A stretch of DNA of 64,000 nt from Paludibacteraceae bacterium (GCA_045614865.1 JAZLDS010000002.1:4252-68251); one strand, 5' to 3'; positions 1,405-17,173 are shown, counted from the first letter of the stretch. The notes: generated by a model not told the origin, from the letters alone. A program made the numbers and translations.

Positions 1405-1429
1405 ACGCTCATTTATTAGAATTTCGCCA

Positions 1430-1594: not shown

Positions 1595-1661
1595 CCTTTA
1601 CACTCTACACCTAGCCAGAAACTTCAACTGGTTAGTGGCACTAACCACTTCATTTCTCATT

Positions 1662-1723
1662 ACTCATCACTCATAGTTTATAACTAATAAGTGCTATCAC
1701 ATTAATTTATGTATTTAAGGGGA
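1662..1723. repeat. junction repeat (A-box plus degenerate hairpin part)
   Basis: ACTCATCACTCATAGTTTATAACTAA at 1662-1687, then CTATCACATTAATTTATGTA. It ends at the stop codon of the 1724-2263 gene. Confidence 0.85.
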
Positions 1724-2263: not shown

Positions 2264-2300
2264 ATCGTATTATTTTTCGGTTAATATTCTATTGTTTATC

Positions 2301-2374
2301 ACTCATCACTCATAGTTCATTCATAACTAAACTCCACCTTATCACAATATCACATGGAAATATGTGTTGGAGGG
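2301..2374. repeat. junction repeat (A-box + B-box + CACAT/ATGTG hairpin)
   Basis: A-box 2301-2330; B-core CTCCACCTTATCACAATATCACA 2332-2354; CACAT-N6-ATGTG 2351-2366. It ends at the stop codon of the 2375-3052 gene. Confidence 0.95.
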
Positions 2375-3052: not shown

Positions 3053-3137
3053 AATTGTATTTTATTTTTTGGTTAATATACTAAACACTCAACAGTAGCA
3101 GCTCCGCCGCGTCCTCTAAACAGGCGCTCCGCGCCCT

Positions 3138-3214
3138 ACTCATCACTCATAGTTTATAACTAAACTCCACCTTATCACACTATCACATGAAAAAATGTGT
3201 TGAGGGGGGATTAT
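3138..3214. repeat. junction repeat (A-box + B-box + hairpin)
   Basis: A-box 3138-3163; B-core CTCCACCTTATCACACTATCACA 3165-3187; CACAT-N6-ATGTG 3184-3199; then a G7 tract. It ends at the stop of the HNH gene. Confidence 0.95.
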
Positions 3215-4420
3215 TTAGCAATAATCATCTATACTATCTGGACCATCCCATTCTTTATCTTGTGCTCTTGTATATGCTGCACGTACACCATTCTCTTCAA
3301 AGAATGTACCTTTAGATGTATGCACAAATACTTCTCCGTTCCATTCAATCTTAGACAAAGCAAAATGCTTTACTCCGTTTGGTATCTTTGTTGAGACAAT
3401 GATGTTATCTTTGTATAAGGTAAACTCAAATACAGTAGATTCTCCATAATTAGCAGTTACAAAAACTTTCCCTTCTTTCAAATTTCTCAAGTAATCTTGT
3501 AACGGTTGATCTGAAATCTCTGTAGGACAACAGGGGAACTCTGGGTTTGTATGTGGAGACCATCCAGTTTGAACAGCAATATCATTAGATGTTTTATAGT
3601 AAGCAATCTCATTTTCATCAGCTTTTTCTTCAATCTTTTGATTTTCTTCTTTCTTACTATATTCTTTGAGAAACTCTTCACCCCAAAAAGTAGCATCCAT
3701 TTTCGTTGGATCAATTGGTTCTCCCCAACCATCTTCCATCTTGTTACCACCATCATACTCTAATGGCTTACCCCAGACATCGTATTTTACTCTGGAAGGA
3801 GCTTGTATATCCGTCTTTAATGGAGCTATAGCATTTGGAATCCATGTACTAATTTTTACATTATATATCCAATCACCTATGCCTCCTGTATGTGTATTGT
3901 TTTTTATCAAATGCAATTCATGTAAATGCTTAAGATTATTGAAACATATTCTTGCTTCTTCCGCTGTTACTGCACTCATCCATGATATATTGGTATCTTG
4001 AGCACGCTGTGCTAATATTTTAGGATTCTCTATAAATTCTTGCAATGTACAATAATAAAGAATCTTTTTAAGTGTTAGTGGATTATTAAGTGCATTCTCT
4101 AGTTTGGTTACCCACCTTAGATTTTCTGGTCGATTATTCTGTCGATTGGTATCAATATGATCTACAACCATCTGATCATTTTCTGGTTTTCCAAGAAATG
4201 CAAATGCTACGACACGATGAACAACCTCTCCACAAAAAGCACAATATCCTTTATCGTTAGGGTCGCCAAATGTCCAAATATTATCCTTCGGACGAACTCT
4301 TGTGGTCTTGGGATGGCGCATGATAGCACCATTATCCCTCACGGAATAATGTTCACCTTTGTAGTCACATTCTCGGACTTCGGTAAAGGTATTTAGAAGT
4401 TGTTCTAATCGGTCGGTCAT
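3215..4420 (-). CDS. HNH endonuclease (HNH_3, homing-endonuclease-like) with long C-terminal extension
   Basis: 401-aa ORF. Motif VVDHIDTNRQNNRPENLRWVTKLEN sits in the N-terminal third, as in I-HmuI-type phage HNH enzymes. The roughly 280-aa C-terminal part is unassigned. Confidence 0.75.
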   Translation of the reverse strand: MTDRLEQLLNTFTEVRECDYKGEHYSVRDNGAIMRHPKTTRVRPKDNIWTFGDPNDKGYCAFCGEVVHRVVAFAFLGKPENDQMVVDHIDTNRQNNRPENLRWVTKLENALNNPLTLKKILYYCTLQEFIENPKILAQRAQDTNISWMSAVTAEEARICFNNLKHLHELHLIKNNTHTGGIGDWIYNVKISTWIPNAIAPLKTDIQAPSRVKYDVWGKPLEYDGGNKMEDGWGEPIDPTKMDATFWGEEFLKEYSKKEENQKIEEKADENEIAYYKTSNDIAVQTGWSPHTNPEFPCCPTEISDQPLQDYLRNLKEGKVFVTANYGESTVFEFTLYKDNIIVSTKIPNGVKHFALSKIEWNGEVFVHTSKGTFFEENGVRAAYTRAQDKEWDGPDSIDDYC

Positions 4421-4433
4421 AGATTAATTTTCT

Positions 4434-4471
4434 TTCACCTTATCACACTATCACATTAAAATATGTGTTGA
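4434..4471. repeat. junction repeat (B-box + hairpin only)
   Basis: TCACCTTATCACACTATCACA 4435-4455; CACAT-N6-ATGTG 4452-4467. It ends at the stop of the GIY-YIG gene. Confidence 0.95.
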
Positions 4472-5299
4472 TTACAAAATCACTAACTTATCTAAAATTT
4501 CACTTTTATCTCCAGTATAATCCTTAGCAACACACCAATTATAACCATAAGCAGATTTTTGCAATCCCTTAATTACATTACGAACATTCTCTGGTCGCTT
4601 TACACCGAAATATTGTGCAATTTCATTGAATGAGGTAAAAGCATTGCAAATTTTGTTTTCGTTATCTAACTGAATAATAGCATTATCTGACCAATATTCG
4701 GTTAATAAGAAGTATTCATTCTCTTTAATATACTCATCTGTTTCATCTTCGGCATCTGTTATCATAATATGCCATGAAAACTCTTGGGCATGCTCTTCCA
4801 TCATTTCACCTTTTTTCCCGTAGAAAGGATTGTTATCCTTCCAATAATGATCGAAGATCTTTTGTTCTCCATATGTCAAAGTACTACCTGCTATTTGTTT
4901 CTGTAGTATTGGGACATACTCCTCAAATTTTCTATTATAAATATCGTGGAACACTCTGCGATAAATATCTTCAAGTATCTCTTTGTTTGAAGCAGCAACA
5001 GTACCTTGGCTTTTTCTATTATACCCATAATCTTTACAATCAGCCTTGTGCAATTGAATCCAATAAGTCTCTCTTTTATTCAGTTCTTCAATGAGAGCTT
5101 GTGTACTATCATTTTCTATTGTTTCAATAATTTCATATTTAGGTTCTCCTAAACGTTTATAAGCCTCCCAAAAACCGCCATTCATTGGGCCAATCGTTTC
5201 ACTAAGATGCTCCTTATGCCTAATTTCAGGATCACGTCTAGTCTGACCAATGTATACTTTATTGTCAGAGAATGTGTATTTATAGATATAGCCTTTCAT
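4472..5299 (-). CDS. GIY-YIG nuclease (I-TevI/Seg-like free-standing endonuclease)
   Basis: GIY-YIG core GYIYKYTF..VYIGQTRR..RHKEH..ETYWI at the N-terminus. C-terminal NUMOD1/HTH-like FNEIAQYFGVKRPENVRNVIKG. The ORF-track start 5323 is a GTG inside the junction repeat, so ATG 5299 (MKGYIYKY) is preferred. Confidence 0.75.
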   Translation of the reverse strand: MKGYIYKYTFSDNKVYIGQTRRDPEIRHKEHLSETIGPMNGGFWEAYKRLGEPKYEIIETIENDSTQALIEELNKRETYWIQLHKADCKDYGYNRKSQGTVAASNKEILEDIYRRVFHDIYNRKFEEYVPILQKQIAGSTLTYGEQKIFDHYWKDNNPFYGKKGEMMEEHAQEFSWHIMITDAEDETDEYIKENEYFLLTEYWSDNAIIQLDNENKICNAFTSFNEIAQYFGVKRPENVRNVIKGLQKSAYGYNWCVAKDYTGDKSEILDKLVIL

Positions 5300-5316
5300 G
5301 GTAATTATTCTGTTTG

Positions 5317-5359
5317 ACTCCACCTTATCACACTACCACATTAAAAAATGTGTTGATAT
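5317..5359. repeat. junction repeat (B-box + hairpin only)
   Basis: CTCCACCTTATCACACTACCACA 5318-5340; CACAT-N6-ATGTG 5337-5352. It ends at the stop of the DUF2075 gene. Confidence 0.95.
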
Positions 5360-7414
5360 CTATATCTCCTTCACCCCTAGTTGCTTCAAATACTCATATG
5401 TTCCATTATAGAACGCATGATTGCGGGTTGGATCTTCTTTAGAACCCTCCGGCACGCAAATCACCATACCTTGACGTGCTCGAGTCAACAATACACGATA
5501 GGCGTTGAGTAAGTATGCTTTGCGGTCGTCCTTGTTGATTCTATTCCATTTGGTTCCGCCACTAAATTCGTAGAAAGCCCAATCGTTATCCTGACGACGT
5601 AAATCACCATCCCATACAAGGCATGTCCAATCCAATTCAAGACCTTGCACATCAAACTCAGAAGCAGCATCCTCCAAGAACAAAGAAGAACGTACATCAT
5701 TAATATCATCCAAGAACCAATGGACTGTATCCGGCTTACAACGAACATCAATAGCCAATGGCTTCAATCGATATGCTTTAGATGATACAAGCAAACCATA
5801 ACGCTCATTTCCGCGTGCTCGCTCACGGAGCCAAGCTTTGGCTTTGTCTAAATCTCTAGTTAAAACGATAGGGTATCGGTCTGCTATCTGAGCATACGTA
5901 TCACGAGCACTATCAATATCTCCATCAAGAATATAATGTACAATATGAGATAAACTCTCAGCACGGAAGCTACGCATAGAAACAGCCAAGTGCAAGTCCT
6001 CGGAGAATGTGACACGAGGATTATCCGACAGCAACTCCTTCACCTTTCCTTCGGCATACTCTTTGGCGGTCAGCTGGCTAGAGATATACACATTCCAATT
6101 AGGGAATGTTTCATTGAGTGCGCGAATCCATTCGCCGATACCCGCTTCGCCTGTATTAATTTCTTGTCCACCACCTACTAGACAAACAATGACTGCCCAG
6201 TCTGGACGTTGATCAAGCGACCAAATAAGGAATTCGCTTTCGGACATCGGGAAATCAGCAAAGCCCTTTTTACGCTTCAACCAACCAGCAATATGCTCTT
6301 TGTCCCACGAGCGTTGCGCCTCATCAAAGATAGCTATATTCTCCACCTCGCCATAACCAGCTGTCTGGTCTTTGAGCTCTTTGGTAGGGTCGATAACCAG
6401 TTGTCCGTTTTCCAGCATTACTTTGCTGAGCATATTATCACGATAGCGGTGGATAATCTGAATAAAGCGTTTTACCTCTCGTTCTGCTTCTTTCTTAGTA
6501 ATCTTATTGCCCTTTGCTTTCTTTTGCGCTTGTTTATCACGCGTGAGTGCTTCGGTAAGAACTTCTACCAGCGGACCATTACCGGACAAATAGACAGCTA
6601 AATCTTGGTCTTCCTCTTGCTGTACAGCCACGTTGAGTCCAACGAGCGTTTTACCAGCACCTGGAACTCCTGTTACAAAGCAAATACTCTTGCCTCTTTG
6701 CGCTTTGGTCTGACGGATGACGTCTTGTACGTATCGAGTAGTATTATCCAATTGTGCGCCTTCAGATTCGTGTTTAGTAATATCCGCAACACTATGATTA
6801 AGATAAAGCGAACGTGCCGCTTCTATGATAGTGGGCGTAGGTGCATAGCGACTACGAGCCCAATCGGACATGGCAACGGCATAGGTTGTAGATATCGCGT
6901 TTTCAGACAACACAAGAGCTATTGCGTCTGACAAATACTCCGCATTAGTCATCATTGGCTCATAGATGCCGTCATCATAATGTGAAGGTTGGCACAACGT
7001 AGCATAAGAATTGCTGTCAGTCGCTACGAGAATAGGAACGATAGCACGATCCACGCTACCTTGATGGAAATTCTTAAGGTCGAGAGCATAGTCTAAGACT
7101 TGATCTACGTCATGACGAAGGAAATTCTCCTCGCCTGCCTTGAACTCAATAACGAATACGCGTTCACGAAGCAAAAGAACTACGTCTATGCGTTTACCTA
7201 AACGGGGAATAGTGTATTCGAAAATGATTTGCCCTACTTCGTTAGCGTAAGGTACAAGAACAGACTTCATGATGTCGATTTCTTGTGACCATGCAAACTT
7301 CTGGGTAGAGGCGGTATCCATCTCATCCGCACGAGCCATGACACCAAATATCTGGTCTGTATTCTCAGACAAGAAAGTAGCGATATCTGCTTGATAAAAG
7401 AATCTGTTAGTCAT
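5360..7414 (-). CDS. DUF2075-type nuclease-helicase (Schlafen-like P-loop NTPase with N-terminal PD-(D/E)xK-like module)
   Basis: 684-aa ORF. RIDVVLL..VFVIEFK (nuclease-like), Walker A GVPGAGKT, Walker B-like IAIFDEAQ, and UvrD_C-like YRVLLTRARQGMVICV. TAACTTTG box lies upstream. Confidence 0.8.
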   Translation of the reverse strand: MTNRFFYQADIATFLSENTDQIFGVMARADEMDTASTQKFAWSQEIDIMKSVLVPYANEVGQIIFEYTIPRLGKRIDVVLLLRERVFVIEFKAGEENFLRHDVDQVLDYALDLKNFHQGSVDRAIVPILVATDSNSYATLCQPSHYDDGIYEPMMTNAEYLSDAIALVLSENAISTTYAVAMSDWARSRYAPTPTIIEAARSLYLNHSVADITKHESEGAQLDNTTRYVQDVIRQTKAQRGKSICFVTGVPGAGKTLVGLNVAVQQEEDQDLAVYLSGNGPLVEVLTEALTRDKQAQKKAKGNKITKKEAEREVKRFIQIIHRYRDNMLSKVMLENGQLVIDPTKELKDQTAGYGEVENIAIFDEAQRSWDKEHIAGWLKRKKGFADFPMSESEFLIWSLDQRPDWAVIVCLVGGGQEINTGEAGIGEWIRALNETFPNWNVYISSQLTAKEYAEGKVKELLSDNPRVTFSEDLHLAVSMRSFRAESLSHIVHYILDGDIDSARDTYAQIADRYPIVLTRDLDKAKAWLRERARGNERYGLLVSSKAYRLKPLAIDVRCKPDTVHWFLDDINDVRSSLFLEDAASEFDVQGLELDWTCLVWDGDLRRQDNDWAFYEFSGGTKWNRINKDDRKAYLLNAYRVLLTRARQGMVICVPEGSKEDPTRNHAFYNGTYEYLKQLGVKEI

Positions 7415-7433
7415 GGCGTTTCTTGTTACCCCG

Positions 7434-7441
7434 CAAAGTTA
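7434..7441 (-). promoter_or_regulatory. -7 box TAACTTTG (DUF2075 gene / cassette array)
   Basis: TAnnTTTG match about 20 nt upstream of ATG 7414. No comparable box is seen upstream of the four downstream cassettes. Confidence 0.6.
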
Positions 7442-7502
7442 CTACTTTTTTCGCAATAATCCAAAAAAAAGGACTAAATTTCTAAATTTAGACCTTCTTT
7501 CG

Positions 7503-7525
7503 CTCCACCTTATCACAATATCACA
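7503..7525. repeat. junction repeat B-core (outermost copy, upstream of the DUF2075 promoter)
   Basis: CTCCACCTTATCACAATATCACA, followed directly by the 71-bp repeat/terminator at 7528. Confidence 0.9.
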
Positions 7526-7527
7526 AG

Positions 7528-7598
7528 AAAAAAAGAGCGAAATACTCTTTTTTTAGTTTAGTGGACGGACCAAAGGTCCTACGGTTTAGGGTTTAGAG
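7528..7598. repeat. 71-bp repeat, copy 1 (A/T-flanked hairpin + GGACC-AAA-GGTCC hairpin + GTTTAGGGTTTAGAG)
   Basis: 62 of 71 positions are identical to 12180-12250 by hand alignment. Confidence 0.9.
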
Positions 7599-7604
7599 AC
7601 GAAG

Positions 7605-7663
7605 GGACGGCTGCGCCTATTGGACGCTGCGCTAATGGATAATGTACGGCGTGCCGCCTAATG
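7605..7663. repeat. three degenerate GC-rich repeats GGAC(G)GCTGCGC(C)TAATG
   Basis: GGACGGCTGCGCCTATTG, GACGCTGCGCTAATG and TACGGCGTGCCGCCTAATG. Related single copies occur at 10491-10508 and, inverted, at about 3092-3108. Confidence 0.8.
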
Positions 7664-7738
7664 GGCGATGAGGCAAAAGGCGAGGGGTGAAAGGTGAGAA
7701 AAATGGAGAATCGGCTCAAAAAGGTCGATTTTTTTGCA

Positions 7739-7765
7739 ATTATCGGCTCAAATTGAGCCGATAAT
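7739..7765. repeat. perfect 27-bp palindrome ATTATCGGCTCAA-A-TTGAGCCGATAAT
   Basis: 13-bp arms around a single central A. An extra half-site ATCGGCTCAA lies at 7710-7719. Confidence 0.95.
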
Positions 7766-7943
7766 CCAAATATTTTTTGTGATTTTGCACCGATTTACAA
7801 AAAAGACTATGGAAACAGCTCGTGAAATACTGCAATTTTTGTACTTGTACTTTCGCGCAACAATTCTCCTGCGCTGTAAATATTACCTATATGCCTCGTA
7901 ATAACAGACTTGGGGTGCTTTCGTGGGAGATATACACCAGCGA

Positions 7944-7976
7944 GAAAAAGAAATCGCCCCACGTTGGAGGCGATCG
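7944..7976 (-). terminator. intrinsic terminator of the NTase-phosphoesterase gene
   Basis: Stem ATCGCC/GGCGAT (7953-58 / 7969-74), followed on the minus strand by TTTCTTTTT. Confidence 0.6.
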
Positions 7977-8004
7977 GTTATATTCATGGTGATATGTGTA
8001 ACAA

Positions 8005-9486
8005 TTAAATATCTATATGACGTGCTGGATCAAAGCCGTTATGATGGTGCTCGCCGTGAGATATATAACCGAGTTGGTTGGAGAGAATTCGAGTACCACC
8101 TATCTGCGCATCTATATTACGATGCGAGTGGCCATAAATCCAATAGTCGATTCCTGAATCAACTATATACTCGCCCAACTCCACCGTAAAGGCTCCGCTG
8201 ATCGTACTACCACAGAACTCCTGTGCAGTACACAGATGTGTTGGCACATGGTGAGTAAGAACAATCTTGGTCTTAGCTTTACTCTCTACTACTGCCTGCT
8301 GGATAAATTGAAAACAACGTGCATGTTCGCGATTGAAGTCTTCGGCAGTCAAACGATGACCATTGTACTTAATTCGGTAGAAATCACTCACATTACGCTC
8401 AGTAAGGAAAGCATCACAAGGTTCGATCTTTGACCAAAGAGTAGAAATAATGATATCTATATCGCCAATCGAAACCACACTATTGTAGTAAGCATGGACA
8501 TTGTGGCGAATCTGACGGCAATAACCATCAGGCATCGTAGAGAGATCATAATGCGCATAGAAATCGTGATTGCCGAGGCAAACGATGACTTGCTGATAAT
8601 GTCTCGATGCCCAATCCCAAAAACTATAACTACCATAAGTATCGAGGTCCGAATCTGGCAAATCAAGATATGCGCTATCACCAGCGATAAGTAGAATATC
8701 ACCCGTTACTTGCAGCGGATGATCTTGCAGGTATTGTCGGTTTTGCGGGAACTCCAAATGCAGGTCGCTTACAAACTGAATCTTGAGGATTGGTGCTTGG
8801 TAGGATGCGATAGACTGAAGAATATCCAAAATCAAATCGGTACGCTCTATCTCTTCAGGAGTAATAGCACATTCAATCTCCTCTGTTAGATTAGGACGCT
8901 TGAGCATAGTCGCAAACTGTTGAGCCAAATAAGACTTGACCTGTCCTGTTTCTGCATTGAACTTATCGACGAACTCCGTACAATAGTTCAGCACATAGAC
9001 AATATCCTCAAAATCGTTAGCTCCGCGCCAATCCGAACCTCCACGAGAGAGAAGTGCATCAATCTTAGTTGCTACGTAATAAGTCACAGGAAGGCGATAG
9101 ATCTCTTGACCAGAAGGCAGAGCATACAACTCGCGATGAGCAAAACCTAGTTCATACCAACGGTTGCCAAACGAAAGACTTTGTTCGTTCATAGACATAA
9201 CATCTACCATCTCGCCATTATACACCCAACGGCAAATCACAGGCGGTTCAGAATCGTGATCGTTCTGAAAATGTTTCTTGCGGAGCAATTGCTCAAAAGC
9301 TGCATGCTCGGCATAGGAGTTGGAATCTACCACACAATCCACATCAATAGTAGTACGTGGTTCGGTAGCCGCAGGATCGGTAGCATATGCTCCTGCCACA
9401 GCTCCACCCACATAGACCAATCGTTCATTGAGTTCTTGCATGGCTGAAGCTATATACTGCAAGCGTTCGTTATTGGTTCTCTGCAT
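8005..9486 (-). CDS. fusion protein: AbiEii/MNT-like nucleotidyltransferase + calcineurin-like metallophosphoesterase
   Basis: N-terminal half has the NTase signature YVGGAVAG...TIDVDCVV. C-terminal half has all five phosphoesterase motifs (SDLHLE, AGDSAY, GNHDFY, LTHHVP, GHSHRN). The ORF-track start 9591 lies inside the upstream gene. ATG 9486 overlaps the upstream stop by 17 nt; ATG 9441 is an alternative. Confidence 0.7.
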   Translation of the reverse strand: MQRTNNERLQYIASAMQELNERLVYVGGAVAGAYATDPAATEPRTTIDVDCVVDSNSYAEHAAFEQLLRKKHFQNDHDSEPPVICRWVYNGEMVDVMSMNEQSLSFGNRWYELGFAHRELYALPSGQEIYRLPVTYYVATKIDALLSRGGSDWRGANDFEDIVYVLNYCTEFVDKFNAETGQVKSYLAQQFATMLKRPNLTEEIECAITPEEIERTDLILDILQSIASYQAPILKIQFVSDLHLEFPQNRQYLQDHPLQVTGDILLIAGDSAYLDLPDSDLDTYGSYSFWDWASRHYQQVIVCLGNHDFYAHYDLSTMPDGYCRQIRHNVHAYYNSVVSIGDIDIIISTLWSKIEPCDAFLTERNVSDFYRIKYNGHRLTAEDFNREHARCFQFIQQAVVESKAKTKIVLTHHVPTHLCTAQEFCGSTISGAFTVELGEYIVDSGIDYWIYGHSHRNIDAQIGGTRILSNQLGYISHGEHHHNGFDPARHIDI

Positions 9487-9988
9487 AGTTTTGGATTCGT
9501 TTGTTGAGTTCTGCAATTGCAATGGCTTTTTCGCGGGCGCGACCCATACGGAGCGTATCCACAATAACAAGCCATTGGTATAGTTCTTCATCTCTTAAAG
9601 CAGCCTGCAAAGCGGTAGGATACAGCGGTTCGATCTGTTGACCACGCGCTGTGCCTTTAACATCGTGCCATACATAACTATCAGAAGTAGAGGTGAGTTG
9701 CTCTTTGATAGGCGATGCACTCACATAGGCAGGTACACCACGCCCAACTCTGCCAGCCTGCACAGGAAAAACATACTGCACACCATGAATAAGAAACTCC
9801 TGAAGCGCCAAAGTGTTGACACGTTTCTTGTTGCGGTCAACCAGTTGTGCATTTTTACTTCGCTCAAGGCTCTCACTAACACTGGAGGGGTTCATACCTA
9901 AAGACGCAGCTAATCCACGACAAGAAAGATCTTTGCCATCTTGCGTCATTTTTTTTAAAAGAACCAATAAATCTTGCGGTTTCATCAT
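9470..9988 (-). CDS. winged-helix (MarR/AbiEi-like) DNA-binding protein
   Basis: wHTH-like LSCRGLAASLGMNPSSVSESLERSKNAQLV in the N-terminal half. The ORF-track start 10000 is TTG, so ATG 9988 (MMKPQDLL) is preferred. TACCTTTG box lies upstream. Confidence 0.6.
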   Translation of the reverse strand: MMKPQDLLVLLKKMTQDGKDLSCRGLAASLGMNPSSVSESLERSKNAQLVDRNKKRVNTLALQEFLIHGVQYVFPVQAGRVGRGVPAYVSASPIKEQLTSTSDSYVWHDVKGTARGQQIEPLYPTALQAALRDEELYQWLVIVDTLRMGRAREKAIAIAELNKRIQNYAENQ

Positions 9989-10052
9989 TTTATATATCAA
10001 TGGTTTATAGAAAAGTGTTATCCGTTCGTGAACAGATTACACGAATCCGCTG

Positions 10053-10060
10053 CAAAGGTA
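10053..10060 (-). promoter_or_regulatory. -7 box TACCTTTG (wHTH / NTase-phosphoesterase operon)
   Basis: TAnnTTTG match about 65 nt upstream of ATG 9988. Confidence 0.55.
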
Positions 10061-10524
10061 CTACAAAAAATGCACATATGCAAGTAAAGTGAGAAAATTT
10101 ATAAGAAAATAATAGATTTAGAATCTATTTGTACGGATTTCATCGCACTATAGGAGCTCGATCATGATAGTGAGAATGAAAATCAGCACAAAAAGGCGAA
10201 GCCGATTTTCTTATAAATTTGCGCGCGAACTTGCATATGGGCTGCATCGCGCGAACGTAGCTACGAGGGAATTGGCATCAGCCAAGGCAGATGTTCGAAG
10301 GTACTGCTTTTTATTGATATATGCAAGAAAATAATGAAATTATTTGTATTTTAAAAGTGTTTTTCATGAAATCATGCTGAAAAAACTGCGCAAATTTAAA
10401 GTTGCACTTTAAGATTGCGAAGATTTTGCGTGTACCAAAGGCGCAGGGTAGAGTGTAGGGTGTAAAGGCAGGCGCAAGCGCAGTTTAGAGGACGGCTGCG
10501 CTACAATTTAGAGTTTAGAGGCAA

Positions 10525-10556
10525 TAAAAAACCACCGCCCACAAGAGGCGATGGTT
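10525..10556 (-). terminator. intrinsic terminator of the Bro-N gene
   Basis: 10-bp stem AACCACCGCC/GGCGATGGTT (one G-T pair), with a T-run on the minus strand. Confidence 0.7.
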
Positions 10557-10572
10557 GTCTATTGAGAAGTAT

Positions 10573-11415
10573 TTATTCTTCTATAGGTTTTATTTCCTGC
10601 TCAGGCAGATAGTCAGTTGCTTTCGCCGAAGATATAACACTATGACCTAAACGTGCCTCTATCTCCTTGCGGGTATTACCTGCAATAGCACCACCCTCTT
10701 TAGCTACCTTAGCACTCGCACGGAATCCCTGTGGATTGCTCTGTTTGTGCAACTCCGCCGTAGTAATCTCAGCCAATGTATTGAGTGTCAATTCCAAATT
10801 GGTCATATTATCACGGAGGCTCTCCTTATGCAAACCCTTATGGCGTTTATACTCGCCTACTGTCTTACCGCTCCATGCTTGGGTGATGATATTCGTGAGC
10901 GATGCATATTGTTGCCCCTCTTCTACACCTGCACGCTTCCATTCGTCTGTCAACTCCTTGCGCACCTCAATGGAACGAATACGCTGATTGATCCATTTAT
11001 CGGAATATCCTAAACGTGCATAATCAGCGATGGCTTGTTGAATGGAAAGTTCTGGGTCTTGCAACTGATCCAAACGGTCAGACGCCACCTTAGCCATCCA
11101 TTGTTTGAACGGCTCGGCTTTAGGCGATGGCACCGATTGGATAATACGGAACAATTGCTCTTGATCGGCAACATCAGAGAGATAACGCTTACCGTCTGCG
11201 GCAAGCAATTTCAGTTGGTTACAATTTGTAACCGACTCGTTTCCCTCTTTCTTTAGTCGGTTTTTCAAGACCTTCCAATAATTACGAGGCGTAGGGCTAT
11301 CCGTTAAAATAGCGATTACATCCACTACAGAGAAGTACCACTTCTCTTGCACATCGTCCCAAATAGTGCGTACATTGCGCTCTTCAAAGAGTTGTATAGA
11401 TTGTTTCTGAGTCAT
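10573..11415 (-). CDS. Bro-N domain protein (phage antirepressor/DinD-like)
   Basis: 280-aa ORF. VRTIWDDVQEKWYFSVVDVIAILTDS..RNYWKVLKNRL..SPKAEPFKQWMAKV resembles Bacteroidales Bro-N proteins. It has its own promoter box and hairpin terminator. Confidence 0.7.
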   Translation of the reverse strand: MTQKQSIQLFEERNVRTIWDDVQEKWYFSVVDVIAILTDSPTPRNYWKVLKNRLKKEGNESVTNCNQLKLLAADGKRYLSDVADQEQLFRIIQSVPSPKAEPFKQWMAKVASDRLDQLQDPELSIQQAIADYARLGYSDKWINQRIRSIEVRKELTDEWKRAGVEEGQQYASLTNIITQAWSGKTVGEYKRHKGLHKESLRDNMTNLELTLNTLAEITTAELHKQSNPQGFRASAKVAKEGGAIAGNTRKEIEARLGHSVISSAKATDYLPEQEIKPIEE

Positions 11416-11444
11416 ATATATTCATTTCTGTGACCTTTGCGCTG

Positions 11445-11452
11445 CAAAGGTA
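11445..11452 (-). promoter_or_regulatory. -7 box TACCTTTG (Bro-N gene)
   Basis: TAnnTTTG match about 30 nt upstream of ATG 11415. Confidence 0.6.
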
Positions 11453-11478
11453 CAACATTTTTTTTATATTTCCAAATT

Positions 11479-11673
11479 CTAGAAATCATTATCCTCATAC
11501 GAATCCCAACCAGACATGCCATCGTTGTCATAGTCGCCACAATCCCAGTCCTCGCGAGAGGTCCAGTTGCCCGAACCTTGGACGCGATGACGACGACTCT
11601 CGCTAATGCTGCGATAATCCTCCCCGTTGAATTGATTAGAGGAGTCATCAAATAAAAAATCAAATAGTCCCAT
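11479..11673 (-). CDS. hypothetical very acidic small protein (64 aa)
   Basis: ATG ORF 41 nt downstream of the HIRAN gene stop on the same strand. Asp/Trp/Ser/Gly-rich (DWDCGDYDNDGMSGWDSYEDNDF). No family recognised; it may not be translated. Confidence 0.4.
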   Translation of the reverse strand: MGLFDFLFDDSSNQFNGEDYRSISESRRHRVQGSGNWTSREDWDCGDYDNDGMSGWDSYEDNDF

Positions 11674-11714
11674 TCTTGTTTAATGTTTAGAGTGTAGTGT
11701 TTAGAGAGATGTGA

Positions 11715-12050
11715 TTATGCTTCCTTCGCTTTTACAAAAATGCCAATATGCACTTGCTGTTCGGGATAGGCAGTAGGGTCGAGACCCTGCACATACACCT
11801 CAAACAAATCGCCATGGCCCATATCTAGCATAGAAGCCAGTTGCTCATTTTTGCTAGCAGGTACGTATCCGATATGCGTATCCCCATAGAAAATAGCTAC
11901 TGCATCATGGTCATAAGCATTCTCATCCTCACGAACCAATCGCAAAAGAGTACCAATCTTCAAATCATTAAACACCATACAACCCTCATAATGAGCGAAA
12001 CCTGCTACGTTGCAACTAACTAAGAGTTCTTTCTGTTTTTTAATCTTCAT
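11715..12050 (-). CDS. HIRAN domain protein
   Basis: 111-aa ORF with VAGFAHYEG..LVREDENAYDHDAVAIFY..HIGYVP, typical of stand-alone HIRAN domains. TAATTTTG box lies upstream. Confidence 0.7.
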   Translation of the reverse strand: MKIKKQKELLVSCNVAGFAHYEGCMVFNDLKIGTLLRLVREDENAYDHDAVAIFYGDTHIGYVPASKNEQLASMLDMGHGDLFEVYVQGLDPTAYPEQQVHIGIFVKAKEA

Positions 12051-12127
12051 AATCGTAAAATTGAAAAGTTTAACATATAGACTCCACCAAAAAGACCCAA
12101 AAATAGCACTTTTTCTGAAATCCGCTG

Positions 12128-12135
12128 CAAAATTA
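12128..12135 (-). promoter_or_regulatory. -7 box TAATTTTG (HIRAN operon)
   Basis: TAnnTTTG match about 78 nt upstream of ATG 12050. Confidence 0.5.
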
Positions 12136-12179
12136 CTACATCAAACTGCTAAAACTTGTCATAAGCTCAAAAAAATGCA

Positions 12180-12250
12180 AAAAAAAGAGCGATTTGCTCT
12201 TTTTTTAGTTTAGTGGACGGCACAAAGTGCCTACTGTTTAGTGTTTAGAG
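12180..12250. repeat. 71-bp repeat, copy 2 (A/T-flanked hairpin + GGCAC-AAA-GTGCC hairpin + GTTTAGTGTTTAGAG)
   Basis: Same orientation as copy 1. It forms the 3' region of the NlpC/P60 transcript. Confidence 0.9.
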
Positions 12251-12287
12251 GAGAACCGTTATTAACCGCTTAACCGCCTAACCGATA

Positions 12288-13196
12288 TCAAAAATAACGC
12301 TTGATCTGAATAAGGTCATGGGTCTTGGTGCCATCTGAGAGATAAATACCATCGGCATCAATCCGGTCAATATGCACACGGCCTCCCGCACAATGGATAA
12401 TCTCCGTAGGACTCAACAACAATCCTACATGCGTGATCCTAATGGCCAGTGTTTCGCTGTCAGTATAACCAAAAAAGGCTAAATCACCTGGCAAAGCCTC
12501 CGACAACAACTTGACCTCCTCACCCTGCGTGATCTGCTCGCGCGCATTGCGCAAGATAGTCACCCCCACAGCCGCATACACCACCTGCGTGAAACCCGAA
12601 CAATCGAGACCCATCGCATTCTTACCACCCCAGAGATAAGGGGTGTTGAGCAATGTTTGCGCAATGGCGCAAACCGTTTCTCGCCTCATCGCCTCATTGC
12701 CTTTAGCTTCTGGCCTTACACAAGTGGAATCGATGAGGTATTGCTGACCAAGGACCTCGAAGGTGCCCTGGGAGTAGTTGGGCAAACGGGTTCCGAGGGT
12801 GAGTAGCAAAGGGGTTCCGCCGTTGATAGGTGTGGCAGTGGCTATAGGATGGGCAACGACAGCGTCTAGGCGATCAGGCGAAAGGCTAGAGGCGATAACG
12901 CTAGAGATAGGGGTGAGCATGGAGGAGGAGACCCAGCCCACTTGGCCGTCCATAGTGTTGCGGATCTTGGTCCAACCGCGGTGACGCTCAATGAACTCAC
13001 ATACTTCGCCAAAGAGCAGTTGAGTGGCTTGCTCAGCGGAATAAGATGGACTCTCACGCACAGGACACACGGTAGCATTAGCCACAAGGTATTGGACCGT
13101 ATCGGAGGTGACAGGCGCAGAATCTTCGGCCGTAGTATATGGACATGCTAAAAGCAGGCAAAGAGATAAAAGACAAAGTTTAATGGATGGTTTCAT
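12288..13196 (-). CDS. NlpC/P60 (C40) peptidase with SH3b-like domain
   Basis: Signal peptide, SH3b-like middle region, catalytic GLDCSGFTQVVY and downstream ITHVGLL. Confidence 0.85.
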   Translation of the reverse strand: MKPSIKLCLLSLCLLLACPYTTAEDSAPVTSDTVQYLVANATVCPVRESPSYSAEQATQLLFGEVCEFIERHRGWTKIRNTMDGQVGWVSSSMLTPISSVIASSLSPDRLDAVVAHPIATATPINGGTPLLLTLGTRLPNYSQGTFEVLGQQYLIDSTCVRPEAKGNEAMRRETVCAIAQTLLNTPYLWGGKNAMGLDCSGFTQVVYAAVGVTILRNAREQITQGEEVKLLSEALPGDLAFFGYTDSETLAIRITHVGLLLSPTEIIHCAGGRVHIDRIDADGIYLSDGTKTHDLIQIKRYF

Positions 13197-13311
13197 AAAC
13201 GACAGCTATTTTGACGACAATACCGACAATTTTATTTCAACAATAATGACAATTATTTTTGTTATAAAGAAATCTGTGAATAATCCGTGAGATCTGTGGG
13301 GAAAATTAGCA

Positions 13312-14403
13312 TCAACGAACACTGACACCTGTGCCAGGTTTGTCCACCAAGGTCAGTTTGCCCTCTACGATTTGTATGCCCTCGTATGGGTCATTGCCCA
13401 ACAACACATGTCCATCTAAATCGGCATAGTCCACCAGCGCACTCAGCGTGGTTGCTGCGGAGATACCTGCACTAGTTTCCGTCATACAGCCAATCATCAC
13501 TTGCATACCCAACTCACGTGCCAAAGTGATCATCTTGCGTCCCTGAGCTACGCCGCCACATTTCATGAGCTTGATATTGATGCCATCGTAGTATGGTTGC
13601 AATGCAGCCACATCGTCGTAGGTCTGGCATGCCTCATCTGCGATAATAGGCAGTTCCACCTGCTCGCAGAGCCAACGATGCTCCTCGTTCATATGCTTAG
13701 GCATAGGTTGCTCGATGAGCACCACGCCTTGCTCTGACAGCCATTGGCACATCTTCAACGCATGCTCTTGGGTTGGCCAGCCTTGGTTGGCATCTACATA
13801 GATAGGTTTATCGCTAATGCTGCGGATGAGGTTGATCATACGTTTGTCCTCAGCCTCCTCACGGCCAAGTTTCACCTTGAGGATCTTCGCCCATTCGGCT
13901 TCGCGCACCTTGAGTAGCACCACCGAATCGGAGGCATCGTAGCCGATCGTATAGCTGGTGCAAGGAGTAGCATTAGGGTCGATATCCCATAGTTGCCACA
14001 ATGGCTGACCCTCTAGTTTGCCATAAAGATCGTGCAAGGCGATATCGATACTAGCTTTCGCCGCATGATTGCCTGGTGCGAGGGCGTTGACGAGTTGCAT
14101 GATACTATCCACATTGAGTGGAAGGCTGCAGTTGTTGATGACAGGTTCGGCTAATTTGAGGAAAGCACAAACGGACTCTTGGGTCTCTACCAAATAAGGA
14201 GGAAGAGCCGCTTCGCCGTAGCCCGTCTGGCCGTCGAGGGTGATGCGGGTAAGCACGATAGGAGTGGTGGTGCGGGTGTTGGTGGAGATACCAAAAGCAT
14301 GGCGCAACACGCCAGTAAAAGGTTCGTAACTCAGCTGTGCTGTCTTCTCGCACGACTGGAAGATCAATGCCACTACAATGGCTAGGAATAGGATGCGTTT
14401 CAT
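13312..14403 (-). CDS. dipeptide epimerase (L-Ala-D/L-Glu epimerase, enolase superfamily)
   Basis: Motifs KVKLG, YVDANQGW, LIEQP, IIADEA and IKLMKCGG. It sits next to an NlpC/P60 gene, as in the ykfB/ykfC arrangement. Confidence 0.85.
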   Translation of the reverse strand: MKRILFLAIVVALIFQSCEKTAQLSYEPFTGVLRHAFGISTNTRTTTPIVLTRITLDGQTGYGEAALPPYLVETQESVCAFLKLAEPVINNCSLPLNVDSIMQLVNALAPGNHAAKASIDIALHDLYGKLEGQPLWQLWDIDPNATPCTSYTIGYDASDSVVLLKVREAEWAKILKVKLGREEAEDKRMINLIRSISDKPIYVDANQGWPTQEHALKMCQWLSEQGVVLIEQPMPKHMNEEHRWLCEQVELPIIADEACQTYDDVAALQPYYDGINIKLMKCGGVAQGRKMITLARELGMQVMIGCMTETSAGISAATTLSALVDYADLDGHVLLGNDPYEGIQIVEGKLTLVDKPGTGVSVR

Positions 14404-14416
14404 AATATTATTTGGG

Positions 14417-14437
14417 GTGTAGGGTGTAGAGTGTAGG
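14417..14437. repeat. 7-bp tandem GTGTAGG/GTGTAGA/GTGTAGG
   Basis: Three exact head-to-tail units directly upstream (minus sense) of the epimerase start. Confidence 0.95.
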
Positions 14438-14474
14438 CGACGTAGTCGCGGTGAAGGCTTCGCGGTGAAACGGA

Positions 14475-14500
14475 TAACCGAAATTAACCGATACTAACCG
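14475..14500. repeat. three TAACCG units at exact 10-bp spacing
   Basis: TAACCG at 14475, 14485 and 14495. A related array TAACCG x3 at 8-bp spacing lies at 12263-12284. Confidence 0.95.
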
Positions 14501-14506
14501 ATTTAC

Positions 14507-14541
14507 AAAAAGAGGATGACCGAGTGGAACATCCTCTTTTT
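14507..14541 (-). terminator. intrinsic terminator of malQ (A/T-flanked, potentially bidirectional)
   Basis: Stem AGAGGATG/CATCCTCT, flanked by A5 and T5 runs. Confidence 0.75.
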
Positions 14542-14557
14542 GTGTATAGACAGGAAA

Positions 14558-17173
14558 TTATCTTACCTTAGTCAAGTCGCGCAAGTGAGCGTTGAAAGCG
14601 TCCTTCTTCAAGAGCTCCTCGAGGGTGAGGTGCATGCGGTAGTTCCAGAAATGCTCTGGATTAGAAGGCAAGTTGATACGCTCTGCGTGTTGGTCAGCCA
14701 AACGGATCTCACCATCGATAGCAAACCAGTCTTGCAATGGCAAGATCACCCACATAGCAGGGCTATACATGTGCTGATTAACGATGAACTCAGCAATCTC
14801 TGGAGTCATCACTTGTGGAGCTTCACCCCACCAACCCATTTGCTCGTTGTAGAACTTCTGAGTCACAGCGCGGTCCTCTTCCCACCAAGCACGAACAGGG
14901 TTCATATCGTGGGTACCGATGGTACAAACGCTCATATATGGCGCATCAGCAGGATGTGCAAACGCTACGGTTGGGTCCTTAGGCATGCGTTGGATCTCCA
15001 ATGATAGGATCTGCAATTGGCTCATCACATCAGGCACACAAGAAGGCACCATACCCAAGTCCTCGCCGCAGCAGAGCATGTCGGTAGCAGCAATGAGGGT
15101 AGGGAGTTTCTTGAGCGCTGACTCGCGCCAGAAGGATGTATGACGGTGGTAGAAATAGTCGTTGTGGATATCAGCCAAGAGTTGACGTTGGTCAGCATAG
15201 AGCTCTTGGTAGTTGTGCGACTGATAGAGCGCGATGCGTGGATGGAGCATCGATGGGTTCTTTTGGTCGCGCACGAAGAGCACCTCGCAATGCAAGTACA
15301 AGAGACCATTCATCACATTGTCGATATTGCAATGGTTCTCGTGAGCCGCACGGTTCTCAGGGTTGAGGAAGAAGGCCTGTACCTTGCGTTGGGTATCCAA
15401 GTACTCTGGGAAGAAATAGATATATCCGTCGTTGGTGCAGAGGAAATTGTTCTTCACATACTCGGTATCATAACCGAAAGTATCACCCAAGAAGTTAGAG
15501 CAGATATATGGTTTGGTGAGGCGATCCTCATCGAGCTTCACGCCCATGTTCCAGAGGTCGTGCATAGAGTATGGCATAGCAGGAGAGAAGTGACCGCAGA
15601 GGCCCCAAACATCCGTTTTGCGCATTTGCCAGATACGGAAGAAACCGAGGATATGGTCCACGCGGTATGCATCGAAATAGTCCGCCATCTTGGTGAAGCG
15701 GAACTTCCACCATTGGTAGTCGTCCTCAGCCATCACATCCCAGTTGTAAGTAGGGAAGCCCCAGTTCTGACCGCGTGCATCGAAATCATCTGGTGGCGCA
15801 CCCGCAGATGCAGAGAGGTTGAAGAGGTGAGGATCGGTACTTGCGTCCACAGAGTCAGGAGAGATACCAATAGGTATATCGCCCTTAAACGCGATACCTA
15901 CAGAGTGTGCATAGTCCACCGCTTCGCGGAGTTGTTTGTCCGCATGGAACTGGAGATAGCAGTAGTAGTCCTTAGGTTGTTTGTCGCGCTTAGACATGAA
16001 CGCAGCGTATGGGAGCAACCATCCCTCGTTGGCAGCGAGGAAAGCTTTGTACTCCTCAGAAGCAAAGAGCTCAGCTTTATTAGCTTTGTAGAGCGCCTTG
16101 AAGTATTTGATTTTCTCGTCATATACACATTGGTAGTCGGCGATAGTCTTCGCATTGAACTCGGCTTGGGTAGCGCGGTACTTCTTGAGTTGCGCAGGAG
16201 TGAGCTCGCCCATCTTTTCGATATTGAGGTAGATTGGGTGGAGTGCGAAGACGCTCACAGCGTTGTATGGATATGAGTCGTGGTTGTTGTGACGGAGCGT
16301 AGTGTCGTTGATAGGGAGGGTCTGGATCATCTTTTGACCTGTGAGTTTCGCCCAATCAGCGAGGAGCTTGAGGTCTTGGTACTCACCAATACCGAAGCCG
16401 TTCTCTGAACGGAGAGAGAACACAGGTACGGCTACGCCGGCACCCTTCCAGTTGGCTTGTGTGTAGCGGAAAGGAGAGTCGGTGAGCACATAGTGCTTAG
16501 CGCGTTGGATATCCCAGATCTTGCGGTTCTCGCCCCACTCCATATCCACGATCTCGCCTGATTGGAGATCATAGATCACGTACTTGTACTCTACTACAGA
16601 ACCGAGCTTAGCGTGGAAAGTGGCGGTCCATTCTGGGTTGTAGTTAGGCGATGAGGCGATAAGGCTATCAGGCGATTGGCTATTGGTCATAGGGAGTTTC
16701 TTAGCGCGATCCCATTCGCCGAGAGATGCGATATTACCCATGATAGCTACCCCTTGGTTGCGCTCGAGACGAGGCACATTGACTTTCACGGTGATGTTGC
16801 CAGTAGCTTTCTTAGCCGCTACAGGAGCACGGTGCGCGAAGAGCACTTGGCTGAAGACCTTAGATGCGAAGAGCGATTGGTCTTTGTCTTGCCAAAGGTC
16901 GCGGAGCACCACGTTGCCTGGTTGGCACTCAACCACGTGAGCTTTAGCCTCGCGGCGGATGATGTTGCCTTGCTCGTCGAGTACTACGTAGCAGTAAGAA
17001 ACGAACTTATGAATGTCACTCAGGGTGACTTGTGCAGACCACTCAGCAGAACCGTGGCAATCCATAGCGAGTTGCAAAGGTGATGCGGTTTGGAGGTCAG
17101 CATCCATCGCATATAGGACAGCAAGTTGGTTGCCCCATTGCGCTTGGTAGTTGATTGAAAAATGAAGTGTCAT
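14558..17173 (-). CDS. malQ: 4-alpha-glucanotransferase (GH77) with N-terminal starch-binding-like modules
   Basis: 871-aa ORF. GH77 motifs YRVDHILGFFRIW, CGEDLG and GTHD. A hairpin terminator follows. Confidence 0.9.
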   Translation of the reverse strand: MTLHFSINYQAQWGNQLAVLYAMDADLQTASPLQLAMDCHGSAEWSAQVTLSDIHKFVSYCYVVLDEQGNIIRREAKAHVVECQPGNVVLRDLWQDKDQSLFASKVFSQVLFAHRAPVAAKKATGNITVKVNVPRLERNQGVAIMGNIASLGEWDRAKKLPMTNSQSPDSLIASSPNYNPEWTATFHAKLGSVVEYKYVIYDLQSGEIVDMEWGENRKIWDIQRAKHYVLTDSPFRYTQANWKGAGVAVPVFSLRSENGFGIGEYQDLKLLADWAKLTGQKMIQTLPINDTTLRHNNHDSYPYNAVSVFALHPIYLNIEKMGELTPAQLKKYRATQAEFNAKTIADYQCVYDEKIKYFKALYKANKAELFASEEYKAFLAANEGWLLPYAAFMSKRDKQPKDYYCYLQFHADKQLREAVDYAHSVGIAFKGDIPIGISPDSVDASTDPHLFNLSASAGAPPDDFDARGQNWGFPTYNWDVMAEDDYQWWKFRFTKMADYFDAYRVDHILGFFRIWQMRKTDVWGLCGHFSPAMPYSMHDLWNMGVKLDEDRLTKPYICSNFLGDTFGYDTEYVKNNFLCTNDGYIYFFPEYLDTQRKVQAFFLNPENRAAHENHCNIDNVMNGLLYLHCEVLFVRDQKNPSMLHPRIALYQSHNYQELYADQRQLLADIHNDYFYHRHTSFWRESALKKLPTLIAATDMLCCGEDLGMVPSCVPDVMSQLQILSLEIQRMPKDPTVAFAHPADAPYMSVCTIGTHDMNPVRAWWEEDRAVTQKFYNEQMGWWGEAPQVMTPEIAEFIVNQHMYSPAMWVILPLQDWFAIDGEIRLADQHAERINLPSNPEHFWNYRMHLTLEELLKKDAFNAHLRDLTKVR

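Follow-up and report, generated by a model that had tools for sequence, protein, structure and literature searches.

In a 64,000-nucleotide (nt) stretch of DNA from a Paludibacteraceae bacterium, a gut member of the Bacteroidales (GCA_045614865.1 JAZLDS010000002.1:4252-68251; hereafter the window, with positions counted from its first letter), we analyzed two overlapping genes on the minus strand. Gene A (9470..9988) encodes a winged-helix protein, presumably an antitoxin and autorepressor, and gene B (8005..9486) encodes a nucleotidyltransferase (NTase) fused to a metallophosphoesterase (MPE). The pair is very probably a self-contained, horizontally mobile module of the AbiE/MenAT kind, in which a winged helix-turn-helix (wHTH) protein accompanies an NTase that carries a partner MPE. 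What appears to be new is that MPEs are repeatedly linked to NTases of the DUF1814 type, by fusion and by upstream or downstream adjacency. Since two unrelated MPE subfamilies are fused or adjacent to such NTases in four arrangements, the MPE is very probably a functional partner of the NTase and not a passenger, and the comparative evidence for a shared function is strong. The fusion is the "Rosetta stone" case.

Gene A runs from an ATG at 9988 to a TAA stop at 9472-9470 and encodes 172 amino acids (aa). Its homologues mostly have 171 aa and start one methionine later, at what is 9985 here. Gene B runs from an ATG at 9486 to a stop at 8007-8005 and encodes 493 aa; the two genes overlap by 17 nt (9486..9470). 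The mechanical open reading frame (ORF) of gene B reaches further upstream, to an ATG at 9591 (528 aa). The start at 9486 was adopted because at least 120 full-length fusion homologues of 490-519 aa fit it, because independent gene calls in four other loci (L006, L007, L010, L012) share the 17-nt overlap, and because the N-termini of stand-alone relatives agree. The initial annotation of this DNA had read the same layout, a wHTH gene at 9988..9470 and an overlapping ORF from the ATG at 9486. In a consensus scan, terminator-like hairpins were found 30 nt past the stop of the fusion gene (7952..7975, minus strand) and after the Bro-N gene that lies upstream of the module (10556..10530). Since such hairpins follow both gene B and the upstream Bro-N gene, genes A and B look like their own transcription unit.

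The two halves of the fusion protein

The protein encoded by gene B is composed of an NTase domain (residues 1-228; 8803..9486), a linker of about six residues (229-234; 8785..8802) and an MPE domain (residues 235-493; 8008..8784), all on the minus strand. The linker joins the last NTase helix to the first MPE strand and was placed by the secondary structure of the model and the sequence. The MPE domain was identified by PF00149, PHROG 1649 and Foldseek. The AlphaFold2 (AF2) model of the whole protein had a mean confidence (pLDDT) of 89.5, with about 90 over residues 1-228, and a predicted TM-score (pTM) of 0.68.

As a single sequence, the N-terminal half had no Pfam or NCBIfam match, and it did not match PF08843 (AbiEii) even at E<=1. 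A phmmer search of this half against the PDB returned only spurious triose-phosphate-isomerase matches, owed to the GHSH region. Its identity as an NTase emerged only through an alignment of relatives. Residues 1-230 were searched exhaustively against 1.84 billion representative proteins (E<=1e-3), yielding 2,682 clusters, nearly all of them stand-alone proteins of about 230 aa. Among the best 150 of these 2,682 clusters there was one fusion only (P0114, 492 aa). When 59 diverse members of the family were aligned, G27, G28, D48, D50, D95, K141, D158 and D161 were invariant, and R44, T46, A144 and R148 were conserved in at least 90%. PF08843 was matched by 44 of the 59 (best E 1.8e-11), and the family profile matched an NTase-like structure (5uvd, 9e-8) and MenT1 (8an4, 3e-6) in the PDB. 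A Foldseek search with the AF2 model found MenT1 in the MenAT1 complex (8an5_B, E 1.2e-5, target TM-score 0.60, 228 columns). The PADLOC model PDC-M21B matched gene B as well (1.1e-43; residues 4-228 against positions 7-230 of 234). Three longer members of the family were examined (P0178, P0193, P0261), and no further Pfam domain was found in them.

The motifs defined for AbiEii (I, hG[GS]; II, R-x-T-x-D-x-D; III, KLxAaxxR; IV, +DxxD; Dy et al. 2014, PMC3985639) were located on the minus strand as follows. Motif I is G27-G28 (9403..9408), with V26 ahead of it as the h position; the glycine pair is invariant in three family alignments and in 121 fusions. Motif II, R44-T-T46-I-D48-V-D50 (9337..9357), aligns with T39-R-D41-V-D43 of MenT1 and is invariant in the 121 fusions. 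Motif III, K141-I-D-A144-L-L-S-R148 (9043..9066), is invariant in the fusions, and motif IV, D158-F-E-D161 (9004..9015), both in the family alignment and in the fusions. The residue ahead of D158 is N (H in most relatives), not K or R. T46 stands at the position of the phospho-acceptor in MenT1 (T39), MenT3 (S78) and AbiEii (T65).

The N-terminal half is a minimal DUF1814 NTase and not an enzyme of the MNT type. It falls under the gathering threshold of PF08843 and was recognized only by way of its relatives, of profiles and of structure; it therefore belongs to a divergent branch of the superfamily. The initial annotation had proposed an NTase fold for the first ~250 aa from two stretches, YVGGAVAG (holding G27 and G28) and TIDVDCVV (holding T46, D48 and D50). 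Both are present, and the fold is corroborated by the family profile, the Foldseek match to MenT1, motifs I-IV and the PF08843 matches of the relatives. A pairing of the MNT/HEPN type was considered and rejected: there is no HEPN gene nearby, and PF01909 was touched by only one of the 59 relatives (E 0.096).

The C-terminal half is a complete calcineurin-like MPE. PF00149 covers residues 235-456 with 55.7 bits (cut-off 21.5; E 1.1e-14), and PHROG 1649, "metallo-phosphoesterase", covers residues 213-483 (2e-35). All five motifs that the initial annotation had listed for the last ~230 aa are in place on the minus strand: DxH (D241 and H243 in SDLHLE; 8758-8766), GD (D270 in AGD; 8677-8682), GNHD (N306 and H307; 8563-8574), HH (H412 and H413 in THH; 8248-8253) and GHxH, here GHSH (H453 and H455; 8122-8133). 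The domain has the appearance of an active dimetal phosphoesterase. Its fold matches in Foldseek were Rv0805 (top), PptH, Dbr1, purple acid phosphatases and Mre11/SbcD. PptH (6unc) was the best match by target-normalized TM-score (0.63), with a weak sequence match; it hydrolyses a phosphoester on a protein serine. Many uncharacterized metallophosphatases of phages and giant viruses in BFVD matched the fused MPE, down to E 6e-17, and PADLOC PDC-S10, a single-gene defense candidate, was matched weakly (4e-7). The signature of PPP/lambda-type phosphatases (GDxHG/GDxxDRG/GNHE) is not present in the window MPE, which has SDLHLE/AGDSAYLD/GNHD instead, and its 50 best Foldseek matches include no PPP structure. 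The model of the fusion shows neither a capping domain in the style of Mre11 nor a DNA-binding domain.

We also considered whether the fusion could be an artefact of a frameshift or of assembly. This was rejected: clustering at 90% identity gave 311 clusters of the fusion, drawn from many independent metagenomes, it recurs in L006, L007, L010 and L012, and its residues are invariant. In 121 fusion proteins (64-98% identity), every catalytic residue of both halves was invariant; hence both enzymes are under selection. The fusion is one narrow Bacteroidales clade within the large family of ~230-aa stand-alone NTases.

Gene A was immediately upstream of gene B in every locus examined. The flanks of the fused pair differed between loci: Suf/DnaK genes (L006), MacB/FtsX transporters (L007), RhuM/DsbD (L010) and AAA_14/DUF4143 genes (L012). 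Since the pair, with its 17-nt overlap, sits amid different flanks in these four loci and in the window, we consider the module to be mobile. It also has a conserved palindrome of its own upstream and a terminator-like hairpin downstream. AAA_14/DUF4143 genes, which flank the module in L012, also precede an MPE gene in L053 and L062.

Linkage of metallophosphoesterases to DUF1814-type nucleotidyltransferases

The closest relatives of the fused MPE (48-58% identity) were found in 80 IMG/VR loci, with 32 distinct MPE sequences. In 76 of the 80 loci, the MPE gene lies directly beside an AbiE-type NTase gene. In 65 loci the order is X-NTase-MPE, where X is a protein of 320-327 aa, the NTase has 260 aa, and the genes abut or overlap by 4 nt. 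In 12 loci the MPE gene is followed by AbiEi_4 (PF13338, 3.7e-9) and AbiEii (PF08843, 5.9e-49). One locus (L037) holds both arrangements side by side and is counted in both groups. As for the remaining loci, two follow an AAA_14/DUF4143 gene and two have no partner, one of the latter being truncated. An hhalign comparison placed the 260-aa NTase in the same superfamily, as a distant member (probability 76%, E 2e-5); this NTase carries R-A-T-x-D-I-D. In a rough neighbor-joining tree, the fused MPEs formed a single clade next to the NTase-adjacent clade, which points to a single fusion event.

A second, different MPE is linked to closer relatives of the NTase. Where stand-alone B proteins have 40-45% identity to the N-terminal half of the window protein, the operon has the order MPE (219-222 aa), A (173-195 aa), B (230 aa), as found in L099, L100, L101, L102, L106 and L108/L109. 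The MPE of these sister operons carries GDIHG/GDYIDRG/GNHE. Against the PDB, its profile matched the phosphatase domain of CthPnkp (4j6o, 9e-14), lambda Ser/Thr phosphatase (1g5b, 6e-12) and also ApaH; among NCBIfam models it matched bacter_Pnkp (1e-15) and ApaH/PrpE (1e-17 to 1e-23, below the family cut-offs). At the sequence level the fused MPE and the sister MPE are unrelated (BLASTP E 1.8). In one locus (L107, 3180-3422), a decayed remnant of the lambda-phosphatase-like MPE (E 7.6e-17) lies upstream of an intact A-B pair; hence the MPE can be lost without loss of the pair. More distant A-B pairs (31-38% identity; L004, L005, L103-L105) had no MPE; the stand-alone pairs in L004 and L005 match the PDC-M21 hidden Markov models (HMMs) too.

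Neither the window nor the other fusion loci had a lambda-phosphatase-like MPE, or a remnant of one, upstream of gene A. This complementary distribution of the two MPE types suggests that their roles are equivalent. Every MPE-linked NTase carries R-x-T-x-D-x-D. In the literature, we found no paper linking DUF1814/AbiEii/MenT toxins to a dedicated MPE, and none mentioning PDC-M21, the fusion, the MPE-A-B operons or the MPE linkage of canonical AbiE loci. The remark in the initial annotation that such a fusion was not known from modules of this kind therefore agrees with our search.

Several further observations concern these loci. The X-NTase-MPE order is abundant on human-gut "phage" contigs (L015 2272-4762, L016 2245-4765 and about 63 further loci among L019-L098), with an MPE of 253 aa; a Mob_Pre relaxase gene beside the operon in L015 implies that some such contigs may be mobilizable elements and not phages. 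Protein X had no Pfam or PADLOC match. It was compared with gene A and with an AbiEi_1 protein as a possible relative and is related to neither. The loci with AbiEi_4 and AbiEii are L056-L067 and L037 (e.g., L057 3986-6286). In L017 (792-2175) and L027 (4001-5531) there is no NTase, and a PHROG-1649-like MPE gene adjoins a second, smaller MPE gene (198-201 aa). A scan of viral contigs with the NTase alignment returned only four loci. In two of the sister loci (L099 4774-11614 and L106 2769-8066), the MPE-A-B genes are directly followed by a type I restriction-modification (RM) S subunit and an AAA_15/AAA_21 ATPase, with HsdM in L099; these RM neighbors fit the origin of the PDC-M21 candidate, "embedded in RM systems".

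Possible roles of the metallophosphoesterase

By analogy with its characterized relatives, the NTase of gene B would add nucleotides to tRNA 3'-CCA ends and thereby stop translation. MenT1, MenT3 and AbiEii extend tRNA 3' ends (PMC10435456, PMC11541572). They are silenced by antitoxin-induced auto-phosphorylation of a Thr or Ser two residues before the catalytic Asp (T39, S78 and T65, respectively; PMC11375011; bioRxiv 10.64898/2026.01.19.700257). The phosphate is removed in vitro by the Mn-dependent Ser/Thr phosphatases PstP and SaSTP (PMC11375011; bioRxiv 10.64898/2026.01.19.700257), and dephosphorylation by SaSTP restored the activity of AbiEii in vitro (bioRxiv 10.64898/2026.01.19.700257). 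In this work of 2024-2026 on AbiE/MenT toxins held inactive by auto-phosphorylation, reactivation was shown only with PP2C phosphatases in vitro (PMC11375011; bioRxiv 10.64898/2026.01.19.700257); for AbiEii, a housekeeping PP2C phosphatase is the only enzyme to which it has been ascribed to date.

Our preferred reading, a tentative one, is that with the MPE the system encodes its own phosphatase, which would reactivate the auto-phosphorylated toxin. It is suggested by the alignment of T46 with T39 of MenT1, by the invariance of T46 in the 121 fusions, by the lambda-phosphatase-like partner in the sister operons and by the structural match of the fused MPE to PptH. In the model we infer, protein A of the resting cell would bind the NTase and induce auto-phosphorylation of T46, so that the active site is blocked. 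The MPE domain would remove this phosphate, and the state of the toxin would be set by the balance between A-induced auto-phosphorylation and dephosphorylation by the MPE. If protein A is lost, titrated or inhibited, as in phage infection or loss of the element, then the tethered MPE would quickly turn the stored phospho-toxin into active NTase. The active NTase would extend tRNA 3' ends, translation would stop, and abortive infection or growth arrest would follow. More generally, and with the same caution, DUF1814 toxin systems may include a third component, a fused or adjacent MPE that erases the inhibitory phosphate, forming a writer/eraser switch that fires when the antitoxin is lost.

Several points weigh against a phosphatase of the toxin. 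The fused MPE is not of the PPP type, and its structural neighbors are mainly phosphodiesterases and nucleases (Rv0805, Dbr1, Mre11). Lone genes of its family are widely found in jumbo and T4-like phages as well as in giant viruses without such a toxin, which speaks for a substrate of a general kind, for instance nucleotides or the ends of nucleic acids. The sister MPE, too, scores slightly better against CthPnkp than against lambda phosphatase, and also matches ApaH. A Thr is conserved in the catalytic motif of nearly all DUF1814 enzymes, and T46 is thus necessary for the proposed switch, not diagnostic of it. If not regulated, a phosphatase that is permanently attached to the toxin would counteract the antitoxin. 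In the model of the fusion, the pTM of 0.68 leaves the predicted packing of the NTase domain against the MPE domain uncertain. Finally, PDC-M21 is itself a candidate system, with a putative toxicity and a putative role in defense.

The main rival explanation, rated somewhat below our preferred reading, is that the MPE is a phosphoesterase of tRNA or RNA 3' ends, acting on the nucleic-acid substrate or product of the NTase and not on the NTase itself. In a healing version, removal of 2',3'-cyclic or 3'-phosphates by the MPE would make the end extendable for the NTase. In an erasing version, it would trim the nucleotides added by the NTase as a recovery function. In both cases, the fusion would combine a writer and an end-processor on the same tRNA 3' end. 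The action of MenT and AbiEii on tRNA 3'-CCA ends (PMC10435456, PMC11541572) is consistent with this explanation, as is the resemblance of the fused MPE to phosphodiesterases and to nucleases, Dbr1 and Mre11 among them. Of the solved structures, the closest to the sister MPE is the phosphatase domain of an RNA-repair enzyme, CthPnkp (4j6o and bacter_Pnkp matches above), and the lone homologues are carried by jumbo and T4-like phages rich in tRNAs and by giant viruses, where repair of RNA ends would make sense. However, healing is superfluous for a toxin whose targets are normal tRNA 3'-OH ends, and a fused eraser would undo the work of the toxin unless regulated. RNA exonuclease activity is unusual for the MPE superfamily, no RNA-binding module is visible in the MPE half, and none of the four architectures includes a gene for an RNase partner.

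Two known enzymes serve as points of comparison here. In bacterial class II CCA-adding enzymes, a pol-beta NTase is joined to an HD domain with metal-dependent 2',3'-cyclic phosphodiesterase and phosphatase activity, and these enzymes are a precedent for action of both activities on the tRNA 3' end. Like the fusion, they hold a pol-beta NTase of tRNA 3' ends and a metal-dependent phosphoesterase in one chain; unlike it, they have an NTase of another subfamily, an HD fold, a housekeeping role in repair and no antitoxin partner. The Pnkp of Clostridium thermocellum (Pnkp/Hen1; 4j6o), to which the MPE in the sister MPE-A-B operons is closest among solved structures, likewise unites a lambda-phosphatase-like MPE that acts on RNA 3' ends with an adenylyltransferase domain. 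The fused MPE of the window, however, belongs to another subfamily than that of Pnkp, the Pnkp transferase has a ligase-type fold, and Pnkp has no toxin-antitoxin-like partner.

An action of the MPE on nucleotides is improbable. It would be a phosphodiesterase that hydrolyses a cyclic nucleotide, an Ap4A-like dinucleoside polyphosphate, an alarmone or else a compound that the NTase forms as its product or by-product, and would tune the substrate pool of the NTase or degrade a signal. The top Foldseek match of the fused MPE is the cyclic-nucleotide phosphodiesterase Rv0805, and the sister MPE matches the bis(5'-nucleosyl)-tetraphosphatases ApaH/PrpE below the family cut-offs. Nevertheless, the DUF1814 enzymes characterized so far modify tRNA and are not known to produce a diffusible signal, none of the architectures includes a gene for a receptor or effector, and covalent fusion and strict adjacency better suit a shared macromolecular substrate. 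The initial annotation had listed a broad range of roles for the fusion, the signalling nucleotide among them; action on a phosphorylated toxin or on a tRNA 3' end is now best indicated, and a signalling nucleotide much less so. Most improbable of all is an independent second effector, in which the MPE would be a nuclease, DNase or other toxic phosphoesterase in a two-warhead toxin under one antitoxin and without interplay: Mre11/SbcD nucleases are among the structural matches, PDC-S10 is matched weakly, and defense proteins often fuse unrelated effector domains, but the complementary distribution of two unrelated MPE subfamilies on the same NTase family points to a specific shared role, the sister MPE is of the lambda-phosphatase/Pnkp/ApaH type and of no nuclease type, and the capping or DNA-binding domain of Mre11 is missing.

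Toxins of the AbiE/MenT kind occur widely among bacteria, Mycobacterium tuberculosis and streptococci among them, and the MPE linkage is a concrete, testable candidate for the missing step of toxin reactivation. If the MPE does reactivate the toxin, then the fusion would be the most compact form of such a system, with a toxin and its own reactivating phosphatase in one chain. If it acts on RNA 3' ends, it would be a new tRNA-end-processing partner for AbiE/MenT-type toxins. The linkage would also give a plausible role to an MPE family that is common in mobile elements of gut Bacteroidales and related to uncharacterized genes of jumbo phages and giant viruses. For biochemistry, the fusion offers a natural single-chain construct.

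Gene A, related systems and the surroundings of the module

The PADLOC model PDC-M21A matched gene A (2.9e-42; residues 16-166 against positions 48-203 of 205). Weak wHTH matches in Pfam were obtained (Fe_dep_repress, ArsR, GntR), and in the AF2 model (pLDDT 76.6) a wHTH of three helices and a wing was confident over residues ~1-75 (nt 9764-9988), followed by a low-confidence region (residues 79-120) and a helical hairpin (residues 126-170). The Foldseek matches of this model were weak and mostly wHTH regulators. The reading of the upstream gene as a wHTH protein is thus supported. An assignment to AbiEi was rejected: gene A matched no AbiEi Pfam family at E<=1, it has no AbiEi C-terminal domain, and it has only 172 aa with a short helical C-terminus. 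Neither AbiEi nor MenA3 was among the 50 best Foldseek matches listed. Gene A is a winged-helix partner and not a member of the AbiEi family. Its protein probably represses the operon and neutralizes the toxin.

In an alignment of seven loci with otherwise unrelated flanks, the element GTTCGCnnTTCGCGAACnGCGAAC was found 40-55 nt upstream of gene A. Its window version is the palindrome GTTCACGAAC (10024..10033, minus strand), which fits autoregulation and is a candidate operator. Further upstream on the same strand, TAccTTTG (10053..10060) was read from the sequence as a candidate promoter of the A-B operon; it is partly conserved in the seven-locus alignment and matches the Bacteroidetes -7 promoter element TAnnTTTG. 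A sigma-70 promoter scan showed no excess of sites over chance (9, with 6.8 +/- 2.7 expected), under a model that does not apply to Bacteroidetes promoters.

Three described systems resemble the module. AbiE of Streptococcus agalactiae and Lactococcus (PMC3985639), since reclassified as type VII (bioRxiv 10.64898/2026.01.19.700257), likewise has bicistronic overlapping genes, the gene for a wHTH regulator preceding that for a DUF1814 pol-beta NTase toxin. Motifs I-IV, the phospho-acceptor Thr at an equal position (T65 in AbiEii, T46 here) and a palindromic element in the promoter region are also shared. It differs in that the toxin of the window is ~60 residues shorter and too divergent for the PF08843 threshold, that the upstream 172-aa protein lacks the C-terminal domain of AbiEi and any Pfam or structural match to it, and that the toxin carries a 260-aa MPE, which AbiE does not. 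The description of the module as AbiE-like in the initial annotation therefore holds for the toxin and the gene order, but not for the antitoxin.

MenAT1 and MenAT3 of Mycobacterium tuberculosis (PMC10435456, PMC11375011) are the second case. MenT1 (~190 aa) is the best solved match to the N-terminal half, in structure and in sequence. A minimal NTase of the DUF1814 type, it extends the acceptor ends of tRNAs, and its auto-phosphorylated T39 aligns with T46. As here, the antitoxin of MenAT1 is small and unrelated to AbiEi. In contrast, the MenAT loci, as described, neither contain nor adjoin a phosphoesterase gene, the antitoxin MenA1 does not belong to the wHTH proteins, and MenT1 has only ~19% identity to the window protein.

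The third is PDC-M21, a PADLOC candidate for phage defense (Payne et al., bioRxiv 10.1101/2024.01.29.577857). The genes of the window are adjacent and co-oriented, have the same order and orientation as in PDC-M21, and match both HMMs over nearly their full length. However, PDC-M21B is an NTase-only model of 234 positions, outside which the 265 C-terminal residues of the window protein fall, and the definition has two genes, without the lambda-phosphatase-like MPE gene that precedes the pair in the closest stand-alone clade. The pair of A and B was thus already listed in this catalogue, without the fusion. The MPE would extend the candidate from two components to three.

The genes around the module bear out the defense-like setting that had been noted at first, several of them matching PADLOC defense candidates (PDC entries). 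The region is also lower in GC content: 35-46% across the defense-like island (1-12000), as against 48-52% in the adjoining housekeeping genes (12000-18000). All neighbors named here are on the minus strand. Downstream of the module lies a 684-aa helicase of the Schlafen group 3/DUF2075 type (5360-7414; PF09848 1.8e-70; full-length PDC-S41 match, 1.7e-266), with a NERD/Cas4-like N-terminal region. Beyond it are genes for a GIY-YIG protein (4472-5323), an HNH_3 protein (3215-4420) and an AAA_14/DUF4143 ATPase (PDC-S01; 70-1404). Just upstream of the module is a Bro-N/DinD-like gene (10573-11415; PDC-S13, 9.5e-131), followed by a gene for a stand-alone HIRAN-domain protein of 111 aa (11715-12050) that matches only the C-terminal part of PDC-M03B.

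The nearest genome match, at 98% identity, is a Paludibacteraceae metagenome-assembled genome from roe-deer colon. The distance from the PDC-S41 gene to the fusion gene is ~0.6 kb in the window and ~4.4 kb in this 98%-identical genome (L001). The housekeeping stretch at 12000-18000 includes NlpC/P60, dipeptide epimerase-like and GH77 genes, and the GC content falls again to 35% at 18-20 kb, beside a tRNA-Met gene (18277-18351).

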